Below are positions 3,104 through 59,747 of a DNA stretch of 64,000 nucleotides, piece by piece (within the stretch, counting starts at the first letter, position 1; each line of letters begins with the position of its first letter). The translations under genes were made by a program, and so were the position numbers. The notes beneath the pieces are model-generated. The model saw only the letters and a program-made list of their open reading frames with translations. It ran no database searches and had not been told where the DNA came from. This DNA comes from Squalus acanthias (lineage: Eukaryota), in the NCBI GenBank assembly GCA_030390025.1, contig CM059447.1, forward strand, positions 19,468,001 to 19,532,000, read 5' to 3'.

Positions 3104-3234
3104 TCTGAGTCACACAGACCAGGAAGCTGCAGGGTCCATCCCATGTCTGTGCTGAGTTCGCAGATCTGAGGTGGGACAATGATAGGAGCACGTTATCCCT
3201 AGATTAGGACAGGTAGAAAAAATATCTCCTCGTG
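3104..3234 (+). mobile_element. AmnSINE2-like SINE, 5' half (continues at 4952)
   Basis: ctgagtcacacagaccaggaag...tctgtgctgagtt...gatct; aligns with the 5' part of the copies at 52260 and 58985-59300. Confidence 0.6.
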
Positions 3235-3344
3235 CAGGGGTTCTCAAACTTTTTGCTTCCGAGGCCCCCGTCCCGTTTTAAAAATTCCACGGATCCCCTG
3301 TAACACAACACAAGTATTTTTTCTGTATAAAAATGATTGAGTAA

Positions 3345-3470
3345 GGGGTTTTCTCCTGAGGTTGGGGAGGACAAGCGGGCTTATTGTTATACTGTGTCTG
3401 ACTAGGGAGTGTTCAATAGTTCATTTCTCCAGTCCTAATATCCCTCTCCTTAACATGCATAAAAATTCAT
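3345..3470 (+). mobile_element. LF-SINE-like 3' fragment
   Basis: Resembles the 3' ends of 1280-1415 and 12190-12335. Confidence 0.45.
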
Positions 3471-3770
3471 CAATAATATATGTATTTTTGTATTTAAAAT
3501 AAAAGATAGGAAAAATGCAAAGTTACTGTATGGGTATGAGTTACCAGCCAAGGCTGGCTACATTAATTTGTGTTCACACCATCAAGTCTGGGCATGATTA
3601 GAATGCAGAAGCAATGTGCTAACCCGCAGGACCTGGACTGCATTGTCACCCCTGCCCAGGAAGAGGGGCAGGTGGCAAATCAGGCTCTTTTGTCGGCCAT
3701 CTAGGCCCACAACAGCAAAATAATTGAACTGCCAACAGGTGTAACATTCCAGTTAACATTCCCGTTAATT

Positions 3771-4246
3771 TGTGTCAGCCAGTGACTCAGTGGGTAGCAC
3801 TCTCGCCTCTGAGTCAGAAAGTTGTTTGTTCAAGTCCCATTCCAGAGACTTGAGCACAAAAATCTAGGCCGACACTCCAGTGCAGCACTGAGAGAGTGCT
3901 GCACTGTCGGAGGATGCTACCTTTCGGATGAGAAGTTAAACCGAGACTTTGTCTGCTCTCTCAGGTGGACGTAAAAGATCCCATGGCACTATTTCGAAGA
4001 AGAGCAAGGGGGTTCTCCCCGGTGACCTGGCCAATATTTATCCTTCAATCAACATCACTAAAAAACAGATTATCAGGTCATTATCACATTGCTGTTTGTG
4101 GGAGCTTGCTGTGCGCAAATTTGCTGCCATCTTTCCTACATTACAACAGTGACTACACTTCAAGAAAGTATTTCATTGGCTGTAAAGTGCTTTGGGACGT
4201 TCGGTGGGCGTGAAAGGCGCTATATAAATGCAAGTCTTTCTTTTTT
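3771..4246 (+). mobile_element. Near full-length Deu-domain SINE (SacSINE1-like)
   Basis: tRNA-like head (gactcagtgggtagcac...gttcaagtcc), Deu core and L2-type tail gaaaggcgctatataaatgcaagtctttctttt. Confidence 0.88.
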
Positions 4247-5007
4247 TAATTCAGACTCAATCAACCAGAGATCTTACCGAGTTTGGACTGTATCCGCAAA
4301 CGAGCCTCCCCCCCAAAAAAAACATCCGCTGGTCGATTTCAGTTTATGAAACTGATGAGAATTCCCATTTGAAAAGTGTTTTTAAAGGAGCTCTATATGC
4401 AAGAGCTTGCCTGGGTGTCAGTGCTGTGTCAGTACCTCGCTCCCAACCGGTTCTCCATCTCTTCCCTCTGCTTTGCCGCTCGGAGCCTGGACGACTCATG
4501 GATTCGATGTGCTGCAACTCCACCCGGAAAAAGCCGACAGTCTCAGTCTCAGCCACCCAGAAGAACCTTGCTGTCCCGAACTTTTCGCTGCTCCTATCCT
4601 GTCAAATTTCAAATCCAAACTTTGCTCATGTCAACCATTCCCGCTTCCGACTACACTCCGCTTTCCTTTTCAAATTTTTAAGAAATCATAAGAACTTTTT
4701 TTGTTTGCTTTTCCTGCTTCCAACTCGATTTCTTCAGTTCTTAGTTGTTTTTTAAAAAATTATTTGGAGTCGGTGGGGTCAGTCACTTCCCTGCTACAGG
4801 ATACATCTCATCTTCGTGTGTTACTAATTATAAATTGCTCAGATGGGACTCCACAGGGGAAAGTATTGCTCAGAGCTTGTTTTTGGGAGGACCCCTTGAA
4901 ACCCCCTCGCACGCCCCTGGGGGGCCGCGGACCCCTGGTTAAGAATCCCTGACCTAGAGCTCCTACTTCTGATTGCTATACGGTGACCTCTACTGGAAAT
5001 CCTTATG

Positions 5008-5204
5008 ATGTGGAGATGCCGGTGTTGGACTGGGGCGGACAAATGTGAGAAGTCGCACAACACCAGGTTATAGTCCAACAGTTTTATTTGAAATCACAAG
5101 CTTTCGGAGCTGCTGCTCCTTCGTCAGGTGAAATCTTCACCTGACGAAGGAGCAGTGCTCCGAAAGCTTGTGATTTCAAATAAAACTGTTGGACTATAAC
5201 CTGG
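5008..5204. mobile_element. Penelope-like fold-back insert (arms about 5063-5132 and 5136-5204), 13-bp TSD ggaaat(c/g)cttatg
   Basis: Inverted repeat read directly; same family as 59510-59747; TSD at 4995-5007 and 5205-5217. Confidence 0.8.
5137..5173 (+). ncRNA. Minimal hammerhead ribozyme motif (second copy on the minus strand at 5094-5131)
   Basis: tcac CTGACGA a GGAGC agt GCTCC GAAA GCTT gtga: conserved core, stem II, palindromic stem III (AAGCTT), stem I tcac/gtga. Confidence 0.7.
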
Positions 5205-5639
5205 GGAAATGCTTATGTGTGACAGCAGATGAAGACATGAGGTTGAAGCCCTTCATTATCACATAGCCTGTCAGTGCTCACTGTCAAAACTCGCATCTAA
5301 ATTTTACTAAATATCTGGCATCCTCTTCATTGACACCTTCTATGTAAATATTTCCATTGGGAATTCCAATGTTAAAATGTCAACATTAATCTTTTACTTC
5401 CCGGTAACCATTACCTGCCACCCCACCAAGTGGTAACTCCATTGGGCATTTCAAGGCTCAATGAGAATACTGACCTGTCACTAATATCCATCATGCCACT
5501 AAGTGGTACTGTAATTTTTTTCCCCCCACAATCATTGAAAATGCTTTTTAAAATCATCTGCCATTTATTCCTCAATAACTGAACTTTCTATTGTCCAAAA
5601 TATACTTTTAAACAAAATTAAAAAGGCATATTTCTCAAT

Positions 5640-11567: not shown

Positions 11568-11618
11568 TCATCGAGGAACAGCGGAATGGACGCCGCTGGA
11601 AGTCACCCGGGCTGGGAT
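11568..11618 (-). CDS. CSNK1D: CSNK1D terminal exon, delta1 tail [16 protein letters not shown]
   Basis: Acceptor ttgcttctttggacag; homologous to the human delta1 tail IPGRVASSGLQSVVHR*; TGA at 11570-11568. Confidence 0.96.
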   Translation of the reverse strand: MPARVTSSGVHSAVPR

Positions 11619-14600: not shown

Positions 14601-17600
14601 GGGGGGGCAAAGAGAGATTACAAGCAGGGTGAAGAACTGCAGCAAGTGATTTGGGGCGGGGGGGGGGGGGGGGGAGAGAGAGAGAAACACCAGGCAATAT
14701 AAAGATAAAAATCCACCTGATCTTCCATTTTTAGTATGGAAACGTTGAACTACTTTCAATATCCATGCTGAGGTTTTTTCTTAAACACAGACCTGTAATG
14801 TAAAAGTGAAGCAAAGCCTTGCCCTATTTTCTAACCCCCAAAGTTTCACTTCTTATGCTGTTTTGTATGTGCATACATATTATTAATCTAAATATCCAGC
14901 AATTTATATTGATTTCTCAGCCTGCAGTCATACTGGTGCCATCTGATGCTGCATCCACACTGGTACAATGGCATACACTACACTCTTATTGTGCTGGATA
15001 ATATACGCTCACATGTATTCCAAAGCTTGCTGTGCTGAATGTGATTGAGAATTAATTATAAAGTAGGTTAAGTTTAACCACTCTCGCACTGTCTTATAAA
15101 GTGTGACATGCCCTGCAGTATATTTTGGGGAAGTAGTGTGGAATAGACGGTTTACACAAGTCTATCAATGTCCAGTTGCTGCAGAGCTAGTTCTGAATTG
15201 GCTTTGAGTGGTTACATTTTTGAAGCCGTTGTAAATTCAGAACCAATGTTTAACATACAGCTTCACTATAAAAGGAGCTGAAGACTCCAATATAGTCAGT
15301 CAGTGCTGTCCTCCTTTCTTGGGCACTGTGAATACAAATTTATATTGATCCAGACTGTACAGGATGGAATGTAGTACACAAGCAGAGTACCTTTACACAA
15401 AGGCTGAGACATTAATATTTACCTGAAACAAAAAGAATCACGAGAAGGATCTTGCATGTGGAATGTGATTAATAGTGGGGATTTCATGGCACTTTATAGT
15501 ACGGATTAGATATTTGATCCCTACACAATGTGCTTTAAACCCTACCATCCTCAGTCTCTTCTACTTCAATGAGATGGGATTGAGATAAACTCACCCAGTG
15601 CTGCCTTCAATGCGTGTGGACCAGCTACATGCCATGATGCTCGAAGGGGAGGCTATTCTGAGGTGGGGGAAAAGACAACCATTTGTAATCTGTGCCACTA
15701 CCCACACAAAACCATCGTTAACAATGAGTTGTAACACTCAAGTAATGATCTGTACAGCTAAATTAGCAAGTTGGACATAATAGAGCTTGAAATTGGACAT
15801 CACCCAGAATTTATTGGAACAACAGGTTCCATCTTTTAGTCTGCACTTCAATGAACCAATAGGTCAGCAAGAGCTTGGACAACGGTCCATGCCCAAAGAA
15901 GTGCAAATTGGTATCTAGAAGGATTCAAGCCATGTGTTAGCACAGGACTCAAGAACAATCCACCTGAGCGTTGGTAACGGCAGCAATCTAATTGTGACCG
16001 CAGGGCTGAAATTTCAGAATTCAACTGTTTTTCATATACTAAATAAAGCTGGTCACTTCAAGAGCATCTTCTCTGGTCATCTCTTTGGTGGTAAAAGGAT
16101 CAGTGAATATTAAAAAGCTGTACACATTTTCTACTCATGGATGCCATGCACATAAAATTTATATTTCAACTCCCATTACATTCTCAAGCACAATTCCACA
16201 CAACTTATTTCAAATTACTTTGCTAGCAGTTTATAACTTCCTTTACAGCACCTTAAATCAAGTATATATCAAGACCACAACAGCTTACTGCAGCACAAGT
16301 AGTAACCTGCTGTGAACCTTTCATTACCTCACAAATTGAAAAAAAGACTATGAAAATCCACTCCCCACCTGGCAGTATAGCCAGGAGGTTACCAGAGTCC
16401 AGATCAGCTGGTGCAGATATTCAAATCATAACCATAAAGAGATGTGAAGACTTTTAAAAGTTACATTTGGCTCCCTCCTATTTCTCATCTACGTGCTGTC
16501 CCTCAGCGACATAATCCGAAAACATGTCAGGTTCCACATGTACACCAACGACACCCAGCTCTCTCACCACCACCTCTCTCGACCCCTCCACGGCCTGTGC
16601 TATCCGGCTGCTTGTCCGACATCCAGTACCAAGATGAGCAGTAATTTCCTCCAATTAAACATTGGGAAGACCAAACCATTGTCTACGGCCTCTGCCACAA
16701 ACTCTGTTCCTTAGCCACCAAATTCGTTCCCCTCCCTTGCCACGGTCTCAGGCTGAACCAGATAGTTCACAATCTCGGCATCCTACTTGACCCTTAACTG
16801 AACATCCATATCCTCTCCATCACCAAGACCGCCTACTTCCACCTCTGTAATATTGCCCGTCTCCACCCCTGCCTTAGCCTAACTGCTGCTGAAACCCTCA
16901 TCTATACTTTTATTACCTCCAAACTCATCTATTCCAATGCTTGCCTGGCCGGCCTCCCATCTTCCACCCTCCAACAGTGAGCTCACCTAAAACTCTGCTG
17001 CCCGTATTCTAACTCACACCAAGTCTCTTTCACCCTTCACCCCAGTGCTCGCTGACCACATTAGCTCCTGGTCCACTAATGCCTCAAATTTAAAATTCTC
17101 AGCCTTGTGTTAAATCCCTCCATATCTCTAACCTCCTCCAGCCCTACAACCCTCCAAGAACTCAATCATTGGAGGCTGTGCCTTGAGCGGTCTAGACCTC
17201 AAGCTCTGGAATTCCCTCCCTAACCCCCCGCCCCCCCCTCCCCCCAATCCTTAAAACCTACCTCTCTGGCCAATCTTTTGGTCACCTGTCCTAATGTCTC
17301 CTTCTTTGGCCTGGTGTCAACTCTTTTTGTTTGGTTACACTCCTGTGACGCGCCCTGGGACGTTTTACTACATTAAAGGCACTATATAAATGCAACTTGT
17401 TGTTGTACACTACAGGACCTAGAGCAGTCCAAAACATCTTAAATGTACTCCATATAATTTGGCATTGCCCAAAGCTTGGAAGTTTGGTGTTAATAGGAAG
17501 AAAATAAAAGGAAATGAAGTTATAAAAAAGTGAAAAAAGGAACAACAATGCATCAGATTAGATAACTGGGTAACTCAAAGTAGAAGGATTTGAGGAGCGG

Positions 17601-32600: not shown

Positions 32601-35600
32601 ATCATGATGAGAAAGCTTAGCGGCTGAATACCAAGCAGAACCAGTGGCACTTTGCAGCAATTAAATAATTTTATTAATTCATTACCACAATCTGTGATGC
32701 AAGCCAACAGTCCACACCCATCAACTTCTCTTTGAAGATGATGTGATGTAAACCAATGGCCTTAGAAGTTCTGTAGAATAAAATGGACTGGGTCTGGTGT
32801 TGGCTTACAGTGCCACCTTCTGTCCAACAAAACACTGCAACAGCAAAGGAAATGGTGGCCACATTTTCTGCAGGAAATACAGTAGCTAGAAAGAAAATTT
32901 GCATAATGTTGCAACACTCTTTCCACAAAACCATAAACAAGTTAACAATGCCCAGGGAAGCAGATAATTACACTAAATGTTTTGAAAACTCCAGCTAGTT
33001 TAATTTTGGACCACAGCTGGATGACGACAAAAAATTCTTAAAATGGTGAATCTGCCTGGCCTTTTGCTCACCACATGGTAAATTTACAGGGTTCAACCTA
33101 CAAATTTAGGAGCAAGATCAAATAGCTTGTTTAATAGAGAATCAGAACATCTAAACTCCCACTGGATAAAATAATAAAATTAAAAACCTTTTGTGCAGAG
33201 AAGCAAGTGATCAGGGTACCATGGAATTAAAATAAAATAAGTACCTCCCTAGTTTGCGATCCTGCCAATTGTATACAAGGGCAATTTCAACAACTAGCAG
33301 GAAAACAGGCGAGACTTGTATTGTAAATTTGACATTGCGTATATGGACCCAGTAGAAATTGAGCAAATCTGGTTTTTGAAAGCGGATATGAAAAACTTAA
33401 ATTTTAATCAGAAGGCAAATGCAACTTTTATTGAAACCTTCCGTAGAAAAAGCCATCACCATTCTTTAAGAAATTAAAATGAAAAAGCCTCAATTGTCAT
33501 TTTTTAAACACGACCATGAACACTCCTCACATTTTCCAGAGACACTTTTTTAAAGCTGCTTTTATACTGCACTAAGACCTGTGCTGGTGGTGTCAACTTC
33601 TGACATCCAGGTCTCGTACACTTGGCTGCAACCAGAAAGTGAACTTGAAGAAAGAGTTGAAACGATCCGGTAAATGGTCTTACACAGTATAAAAGCAGTT
33701 TAAGATACTGAAATAATGAGTGGGAGCTGGATCATTGAAGTTAAAAATCAATACCCGGTTGGCTCAACTTCTTCAGAGGGAACCACTCCCCATGAAAAGG
33801 AAAATACAGTCATACCCATTTATCTGCAACTTGCTTAATTGCAATTTCCATTTTAAAACAACCATTTCTAATGCCTAGTTTTGTTATTTTAAACCTATAC
33901 TTCCAATTGTGAAAAGTTTATTTTATTAAACTTGAATTTATTACAATACCCACAATGTGTGTATGTGCAACATTTTATAAATTATATTTATATTATCCAA
34001 GAATAACTGGCAGCTACAACAAATCTGCCACTTTTCCCAAGTCACACCTCAGAACTCATTCGATTCTCACCCAAATGGACACTTCATTTCGATTTTTTTT
34101 TAATGGATTTCTTGCATGTTTGTTATTTGAAGAGCCATGCCCAACAATAGCAGATGGAGCTGACAATATAAGGTTCCCAAGGTTTGTGGCTACAGATATT
34201 GTTTTTCATTATATTTGGCCAGTCCATGACCTAAAAGGATAGTAATTCAAATCAATCCCATACTGTACCAAAGAATGAACATTCACAACCTGTTCAAACA
34301 CAGCAGAGGATGAAACCATTTACTGATCTGGGGTTGGGCCCTACAGCAAGGACCCAATGAGGGAAAAACAGCCTAAATTCTGACAGTGGAAACATAAAAC
34401 CTCCACTGTCAGTGGAAGTGTTGCACTGCTTCTTTACCATTGTAGGCTATTAGGCCATTATATTAAATTAGAAAAAAGGAAGGGGAAGAAAAAAAAACCC
34501 ATTAATCAGGGTTTCCTTCCTAATCCTGACCATTACATTCTGCCGAAAGCACACGGGTGGCTATTGGGTGAGAATCAGGTTCAGCATGACTGCCCCACTC
34601 GAATGGCCTGATGACATTCACTTAAATAATGGCCATTGAAAAAAGTACGAGAGAGAATCTGGCTTCCAATGAATCATACCCTATCAAGAAGTCATGTCTA
34701 GGAGAGGAGTGGAAGAGAGAAATTGGTGATAAATACTTGAAAGAAAGACTTACATTTATATAGCGCCTTTCACGACCACCGGACGTCTCAAAACTCTTTA
34801 CAGCCAATGAAGTACTTTTGAAGTGTAATCACTGTTGTAATGTGGGAAACGCAGCAGCCAATTTACGCACAGCAAGCTCCCACAGACAGCAATGTGATAA
34901 TGACCAGATAATCTGTTTTGTTATGTTGATTGACGGATAACTATTGGCCAGGACACAGGGATAACTCCCCAGCTCTTCTTTGAAACAGAAATACTGATGG
35001 AAGCAGTGGAGAGACAAGTATTGAATGAGGAAACACATACTTGGTATGAAATCCATCTTCAAAAATAGCCACTATACAAAGCCAGATTAGCTACCATAGG
35101 TATGCACTTCCTCCTATATGAAAGCAGTTAGATTCCATATGGAAATAGGGAGATTAATGTCAAGGAGAAAACAAATGTCACTAACTCTTCCACTCCCAAA
35201 AACAGAAAGAACGATCACAAACTGCCTCGAGGGAGTGCTGCACTGTCGGAGGTGCCACCTTGTGGATGAGTTGTTAAAGAGTCTGCTCTCTCAGGGGAAC
35301 ATAAAAGATCTCATGGCACTATTTCACAGAAGAGTAGGGGAGTTATCCCCAGTGTCCTGACCAATATTTATCCCTCAAACAACATAAAAACAGATTATCT
35401 GATCATTATCACATTGCTGTTTGTGGGAGCTTGCTGTGCGTAAATTGGCTGCTGCGTTTCCCACATTACAACAGTGATTACACTTCAAAAGTACTTCATT
35501 GGCTGTAAAGCGCATCGAGACGCCCGGTGGTCATGAAAGGCGCTATATAAATGCAAGTTTTTCTTTTTAATGAGTATTGTGAGCGTGACAAAAGGTAAGG

Positions 35601-59509: not shown

Positions 59510-59747
59510 AAATGAGAAGTCGCACAACACCAGGTTATAGTCCAACAGATTTATTTAAAATTACAAGCTTTCGGAGCTATCCTGCCCCTTCTTCAGGTAA
59601 AGTTACACTGAGTGTAACTTTACCTGAAGAAGGGGCAGGATAGCTCCGAAAGCTTGTAATTTTAAATAAATCTGTTGGACTATAACCTGGTGTTGTGCGA
59701 CTTCTCATTTTTGTCCACCCCAGTCCAACGCCGGCATCTCCGCATCA
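59510..59747. mobile_element. Penelope-like fold-back insert; perfect 103-bp arms (59507-59609 and 59611-59713); 13-bp TSD tgagtatattcaa
   Basis: Palindrome checked base by base; TSD at 59497-59509 and 59748-59760. Confidence 0.85.
59620..59659 (+). ncRNA. Minimal hammerhead ribozyme motif (identical copy on the minus strand at 59561-59600)
   Basis: ttac CTGAAGA a GGGGC aggata GCTCC GAAA GCTT gtaa. Confidence 0.7.

Follow-up and report, generated by a model that had tools for sequence, protein, structure and literature searches.

A long-dead hAT transposon insertion nested in an older SINE of Squalus acanthias, a candidate for capture of genomic DNA

Analysis of a 64,000-nt stretch of the Squalus acanthias genome (the window) revealed that the unit at 3235..4951 is a genuine, long-dead cut-and-paste transposon insertion within an older repeat. 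The locus is a series of nested insertions: an old SINE received a hAT element, the hAT element received a young SINE, and the same old SINE received a second insertion. Capture of a gene region by the unit is possible and is treated here as a candidate. The reading that we tentatively prefer, with a probability of about 0.4, is that the unit represents a non-autonomous hAT subfamily of 1,236 nt, the founder of which took in old genomic DNA and then spread. An earlier sequence-only reading had described a non-autonomous hAT element inside an old SINE. Its matching ends, target site duplication, rejoined SINE and missing transposase were confirmed; the unique interior, the inner SINE as cargo and the rarity that it assumed for vertebrates were not.

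Results

Copy numbers were derived from public contigs of 4 of 24 listed runs, placed on the region at 80% likeness. Run X1 is from the same species, X9 and X13 are from two further species, and X17 is from organism F. The listed contig pieces number 32 of 507,547; 27 of them were tabulated, and five X17 pieces inside the inner SINE were left out.

Ends and transposon class

The unit and its terminal features are as follows.

3235..4951, hAT unit; composite interior, nested inside an older SINE
3235..3249, plus strand, left TIR; 12/15 to the right TIR, first 20 nt exact in at least 120 metagenome loci
3250..3337, plus strand, left subterminal hAT sequence; also present in a family that is abundant in organisms A, D and E
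4861..4936, minus strand, right subterminal hAT sequence; inner border uncertain, end positions 16-30 with the partner majority letter at 11/15
4937..4951, minus strand, right TIR; 12/15 to the left TIR

The unit, whose hAT type we take to be the one named Charlie, is bounded by the TIRs described in the sequence-only reading, and a 12/15 likeness to the left TIR occurs at a single other place in the 64-kb window. At position 4941 of the right TIR, ten X1 contigs carry a letter that gives 13/15. The two ends diverge directly after the TIR.

Exact matches to the first 20 nt of the unit in the metagenome loci (109 distinct) served as a comparison set. In the 8 nt preceding the terminus, T is present at position 4 in 106/109 elements and A at position 5 in 100/109. 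A partner end and a TSD of at least 7/8 were found for 28 of the 109 elements, which are non-independent and comprise fewer than 28 families. The right end of the unit has the majority letter of these partner ends at 22 of 30 positions, with one tie. At positions 16 to 30, which were unused in partner selection, the right end agrees with the partner majority at 11 of 15 positions and the left end at 3 of 15. Asymmetric subtermini are the rule in the 28 TSD-confirmed elements, and the ends of the unit are therefore an ordinary asymmetric pair. Judged by this likeness, they are a normal Charlie/Buster-type hAT pair of one family, which answers the objection that they might come from different hAT families. 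The unit thus has the short TIRs, 8-bp TSD, central-TA target and ends of one family that characterize Charlie/Buster-type hAT elements, for which a TIR length range of 10-25 bp is given in the accessible text of PMC3942097.

Half of the TSD-confirmed elements with the terminus of the unit (14/28) are 167-198 nt long. In metagenome locus L026, the same terminus is positioned 552 nt ahead of a 493-aa transposase-like ORF, for which Pfam returned DUF4371 at E 0.002, under the cut-off, and which presumably carries Buster-type motifs. This ORF is on the minus strand and open at 2-1480, and MITEs elsewhere (e.g., L043) are deletion derivatives of the L026 element. Organisms A, D and E have the left subterminal piece at 3256-3331 in very high abundance, whereas it is nearly uncovered in organism F, which may date a burst of MITEs. 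A subterminal motif apparently shared by the two ends (3 of 4 window matches at the ends, 0.63 expected) was discounted because it had been picked after viewing both ends.

Target site and interrupted SINE

The unit is flanked by the following features.

3108..3226, plus strand, 5' part of the old host SINE; profile of other window copies, positions from 6 on
3227..3234, left TSD copy, 8 bp, decayed; 5/8 to the right copy, weak target-matrix score
4952..4959, right TSD copy, 8 bp; central TA, a good Charlie/Buster-type target
4960..4994, plus strand, middle part of the old host SINE; profile of other window copies
5008..5204, second insertion in the old SINE, a high-copy hairpin element; 13-bp TSD 4995-5007 / 5205-5217, 12/13
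5218..5302, plus strand, 3' continuation of the old host SINE; profile of other window copies

The TSD pair TCCTCGTG (left) and ACCTAGAG (right) matches at 5/8 positions, with a p value of about 0.03 taken alone. Scoring with a target-site matrix from the 109 elements placed the right copy in the top 0.09% of window 8-mers and the left copy in the top 22%. The right copy fits the central TA, and the left copy has T4 only. The degenerate 8-bp TSD noted previously is thus borne out.

A host-SINE profile was generated from five other window copies, and by its match to this profile the host SINE, putatively AmnSINE2-like in the sequence-only reading, appears to be a member of a dispersed family of the window. 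Removal of the unit gave an empty site that aligned collinearly in one piece over profile positions 6-262 (38.3 bits, E 2e-11), as had been claimed for the two SINE halves, versus 10.5, 3.9 and 7.5 bits for the pieces aligned separately. In the controls, 40 shuffles reached at most 2.7 bits, and swapping the order left the alignment fragmented. The rejoined host SINE accommodates one 8-nt TSD copy.

The hairpin insertion at 5008-5204, which the sequence-only reading had overlooked, is unrelated to the hAT unit. A second copy of the hairpin element, at 59510-59747, has its own 13-bp TSD and perfect 103-nt arms; we take both copies to be Penelope-like. On its minus strand (about 11570-35900), the window also contains exons of a gene that, judging by its motifs, is casein kinase 1 delta-like; its last coding exon exists in two alternative forms, near 15660 and 11600. 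Its last stop codon is near 11,600, and the hAT unit is positioned approximately 6.6 kb downstream.

Inner SINE

Three features define the inner SINE.

3765..3770, left TSD copy (TTAATT), 6 bp
3771..4245, plus strand, inner SINE, full-length, high-copy, tRNA-type; 81-91% to five other window copies
4246..4251, right TSD copy

Four of the listed contig pieces end at 3768-3771, and four begin at 4245-4249. In organism F, a single contig (X17 record 18) has both 3395-3625 and 4245-4546, separated by 151 nt; the expected spacing is 138 nt without the inner SINE and 619 nt with it. Because the inner SINE is flanked by a separate 6-bp TSD and is missing from this contig, which joins both sides, it is a later insertion and not the cargo that the sequence-only reading had supposed. 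These results indicate that the inner SINE was inserted into the unit afterwards.

The inner SINE (475 nt) is very abundant in all four contig runs, and may be SacSINE1/Deu-like. Its length and abundance would fit SacSINE1; for this Deu-SINE of cartilaginous fishes, whale shark copies of up to 463 bp are given in the accessible text of PMC5499810. Inverted pairs of the high-copy inner-type SINE with short spacing are present at 34740-34988 / 35229-35568 and at 2457-2786 / 3921-4252.

Interior sequence and copy number

The interior consists of 481 nt of nested SINE, 126 nt of a repeat relic and a remainder of low-copy repeat without a coding match.

3346..3471, plus strand, decayed relic from the 3' part of an old dispersed repeat (the LF-SINE-like piece of the sequence-only reading); 21 bits, E 2.7e-6
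3472..3764, CpG-poor low-copy interior; up to 10 X1 contigs with another letter
4252..4860, CpG-richer low-copy interior block; up to 11 X1 contigs with another letter, no coding match

In each run, a single long contig covers the flank. Within the interior, the number of contigs with another letter at single positions rises to 11 (X1), 13 (X9) and 9 (X13); at position 4941 in the right TIR, it is 10, 4 and 2, respectively. The variant letter is often identical in all species, and many differences are therefore private to the window copy. The 18 listed non-orthologous interior pieces from X1, X9 and X13 are 10.8-16.5% different, and the closest of them, among the 32 of 507,547 pieces listed, are 84-89% identical. 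The X1 contigs of the locus itself differ by 0.4 and 0.9%, and orthologue-like pieces differ by 4.3 and 6.9% (X9) and by 7.0 and 9.5% (X13). The summed depth in X1 relative to the flank is 6-20x over 3332-3711 and 4320-4547, about 3x over 4548-4775 and 6-10x over 4776-4927, and that of bin 3256-3331 is about 500-1350x in X1, X9 and X13 and 0.2x in X17; summed depth is no copy number, and the number of distinct contigs is the firmer indicator. These results indicate that the interior is a low-copy repeat that is multi-copy in three species. The earlier description of "unique-looking" sequence was thus mistaken, and a single-copy interior, which had been named as an argument against capture, was not what was found. 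Within the 64-kb window, no second interior copy was detected besides the relic family.

Analysis of the contig borders revealed that depth falls steeply beyond bin 3256-3331, at the place where the relic starts. In X1, X9 and X13, the pieces that carry the other letter at 3369 have their left border 30-32 nt upstream of it, and the homology of other interior copies may stop near 3337-3339, i.e., the left end may be absent there. Comparable sharp breaks are positioned inside the interior, at 4544-4546 and 4651-4652. Among the listed pieces (32 of 507,547), none links the interior to a TIR except the contigs of the locus itself; the inner SINE dominated the joint and loose-end contig tables.

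In X9, record 24 extends from the flank into the left TIR by 10 nt, and record 25 enters the inner SINE by 30 nt; in X13, record 14 enters the inner SINE by about 10 nt. Since contigs of these runs enter both elements, the hAT and inner-SINE insertions predate the split of organisms A and D and probably also that of organisms A and E. Organism F is represented by one 1,832-nt contig (X17 record 18) with the middle of the unit, which is uncounted at 3369, 3387, 4591, 4644 and 4941 and is 14% different, compared to 13% for the flank of organism F. Its sequence may fit a TIR-free donor or a decayed copy of the unit, and it is a candidate only. An empty site in organism F was also considered, for which the missing X17 cover at the ends of the unit is insufficient.

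The relic was detected with a profile from three other window copies (control: reversed window, at most 1.4 bits), so that the old-repeat fragment noted previously is a dispersed repeat relic. Its pairwise identity to the window copies, 57-68%, is at shuffle level (mean 56, maximum 72), as is that of the free genomic window copies to each other, and the evidence is therefore limited to the profile match. X1 record 2, X13 records 10-13 and X9 record 26 span the relic and the middle jointly. The relic is decayed like its free copies and the interior copies are 84-89% alike, which indicates that the relic was already old at amplification. The distance from the terminus to its start is only about 110 nt.

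The CpG observed/expected ratio is 0.23 in 3472-3764, 0.21 in the relic plus middle, near the window median (0.34), and 0.71 in the 4252-4860 block, a value reached by 6 of 211 window segments. The contrast between the block and the relic plus middle has a Fisher p of 0.02. Of the promoter/exon-like block in the sequence-only reading, the CpG enrichment was confirmed and the exon was not, the block having no coding match. On the grounds of its CpG content, the block may be regarded as putatively promoter-like. No RNA run was among those listed as containing the region, which speaks neither for nor against a promoter.

Coding searches

No trace of a transposase or other coding sequence was found in the unit by searches that covered some frames of decayed sequence and are weak negatives. 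The absence of transposase coding stated in the sequence-only reading held in the Pfam, protein-set and L026-protein searches. Pfam analysis of 12 frames gave one match, at E 0.2, below the cut-off. Word-seeded protein searches with three frames returned 0/146, 0/98 and 0/13 candidates at E 10 or better, which is weak evidence, and phmmer found no match for one frame versus 1.84 billion representatives. Two open stretches gave nothing usable in the ESM Atlas (best, 0.80), and a 167-codon plus-strand stretch had no match among PDB sequences. In a tblastn search of the unit with the L026 protein, the best E value was 0.46. The three Rfam matches were sub-threshold and all in the right flank.

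On the plus strand, a frame across 3711-3770 and 4252-4755 is open for 189 codons once the inner SINE is removed. This frame was rejected as a gene because the letter at 4410 in most other contigs makes a stop codon; it is probably due to chance. The searches gave no support to transposase-like words that visual inspection had suggested in minus-strand frames.

Discussion

The preferred history, capture followed by spread, would begin with the decay of the old SINE at its locus, which is seen. Elsewhere, a hAT founder would have joined its own termini to some 1 kb of non-coding DNA, and at least part of this cargo would have been old host genomic DNA with the already decayed relic; the relic is seen, and the capture is deduced. 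A transposase acting in trans would then have spread the subfamily to the order of ten copies above 80% identity, a step in which the multi-copy interior is seen and TIR-flanked copies are presumed. One copy would have inserted, with the 8-bp TSD that is seen, in the old SINE approximately 6.6 kb past the stop codon of the CK1-delta-like gene, and the high-copy SINE, also seen, would then have retrotransposed into the unit. We infer that other interior copies carry TIRs and that the interior is host-derived. No function is implied for the unit.

Matched ends and a fitting target site argue for this history, as do the similar numbers of distinct contigs for interior and right end in three species. 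A relic as decayed as its free copies within unit copies that are 84-89% alike, a CpG-poor relic plus middle (0.21) next to the block (0.71) and the fall in depth at the relic start point in the same direction. The 1,832-nt X17 contig, with the middle and uncounted at five end-side positions, is also consistent with it; against this stands the contig's divergence of 14%, like that of the organism F flank (13%), by which it may be a decayed copy. Further points against capture then spread are the sharp break near 3337-3339 in three runs, a left end far commoner than the interior, the listed pieces, which yielded no donor and none of which links interior to TIR apart from the locus's own contigs, and the precedent of MER6, where entry of an old SINE piece into a MITE by insertion has been proposed (PMC6887750, accessible text). 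The break, the listed pieces and the left end, hundreds of times commoner than the interior, would suit uptake in place, in which a short MITE of about 170-190 nt inserted first and then took in a low-copy repeat or multi-copy region by insertion or gap filling, the other interior copies lacking hAT ends. Half of the TSD-confirmed elements with this terminus are near that size (167-198 nt), 168 nt would remain without the stretch bounded by a 7-nt direct repeat (3312 and 4861), and gap filling is the main origin of single-copy Pack-TIRs in the accessible text of PMC8277862. Uptake in place is nevertheless somewhat unlikely: the right end lacks the abundance of the left (10 contigs at 4941; 6-10x the flank in X1), other contigs cover 4700-4927, equally sharp breaks occur inside the interior, and 15% of random sequence pairs of this size share a 7-mer. 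Of the two capture routes proposed earlier, capture before moving fits best; for gap filling, a unique donor is at odds with the data, and a multi-copy donor is possible. It is unlikely that the unit is an old multicopy shark Pack-hAT that captured some 1 kb of host DNA, with a promoter-like, CpG-rich piece in it, and spread it to no fewer than ten sites before several lineages diverged, organism F still keeping the TIR-free donor.

A subfamily without host capture is quite unlikely. It would be a deletion derivative of an autonomous hAT element, with an interior of the element's own decayed non-coding sequence, the CpG-richer block as hAT promoter region and the relic as a SINE inserted long ago in the element's lineage. 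The L026 terminus ahead of a transposase-like ORF, with MITEs elsewhere as its deletion derivatives, agrees with such an origin, as do Buster UTRs of 500 and 339 bp (PMC12637253, accessible text) and a SINE piece in MER6 that is 39% diverged from its source (PMC6887750, accessible text). It requires, on the other side, a non-autonomous lineage lasting from the age of the relic to the later amplification. The relic begins only about 110 nt from the terminus, and no coding trace came from Pfam (12 frames), from four frames versus large protein sets or from the L026 protein (best E 0.46). Capture of unique host DNA, including the inner SINE, as one block in a single-copy Pack-TIR is very improbable; no transposase and no second interior copy in the window besides the relic family accord with it, and it is largely refuted by the multi-copy interior in three species and by an inner SINE with its own TSD that is absent from the contig joining both sides. 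Unrelated or chance-matched ends, suggested by a TSD of just 5/8 and by the difference right past the TIR, are hardly credible and are refuted by the asymmetry that is the rule in the 28 TSD-confirmed elements and by flanks that rejoin one SINE.

Among related sharks, the presence or absence of each nested insertion is usable as a marker. Should the unit prove to have captured DNA and spread as a whole, the locus would add another rare multicopy vertebrate Pack-TIR and a route for spreading promoter-like DNA. If the reading with a donor in organism F is true, it provides a datable capture with donor, derivatives and outgroup in a lineage without Tan et al. cases. So far, no gene, exon or function is tied to the unit.

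Comparison with known systems

A search of the literature for the unit's hAT family, with most subscription journals outside its range, found no paper on it and no relevant case in sharks; the family may already be catalogued in Repbase or Dfam. The accessible text of Tan et al. 2021 (PMC8277862) reports 370 Pack-TIRs, 208 of them hAT, in 55 of 100 animal genomes, and "Charlie" appears 17 times in its case table. It gives just 4 multicopy Pack-TIRs (1.4%) and, for the elephant shark, 0. Capture by hAT elements in vertebrates is thus already documented there, contrary to the earlier statement that it is rarely documented, and a multicopy shark case is a modest addition. The same text defines a Pack-TIR as a stretch of 100-5,000 nt bounded by both ends of one TIR element, an arrangement that is present in the unit; its further marks there are an interior of non-TE host sequence, a unique parental copy of at least 90% identity that is free of TIR ends, and microhomology with the donor at the breakpoints. 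The unit is older than the pipeline of Tan et al. admits, by that account, and is without an identified exon or UTR. Like the multicopy Pack-TIRs described there (e.g., frog Pack-hAT-N8_XT), it has hAT ends around a non-coding multi-copy interior of 100-5,000 nt; in those elements, every copy has a TSD of its own and a unique parental copy matches at 90% or more, neither of which was seen for the unit.

With Charlie/Buster hAT elements (features from the accessible text of PMC3942097 and PMC12637253), the unit shares 15-bp TIRs starting with CAG, an 8-bp TSD with central TA, asymmetric subtermini and the lack of a transposase. It differs from them in its interior, which holds an old repeat relic, and in its 1,236 nt, which is longer than any of the 28 comparison elements (167-819 nt; the length of flank retrieved favours short ones). 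MER6, according to the accessible text of PMC6887750, is a Tc1/Mariner element with hundreds of copies and an identified parent, whereas the unit is a low-copy hAT element. In both MER6/MER6A and, on the preferred reading, the unit, a non-autonomous DNA transposon was amplified with a fragment of an old SINE inside.
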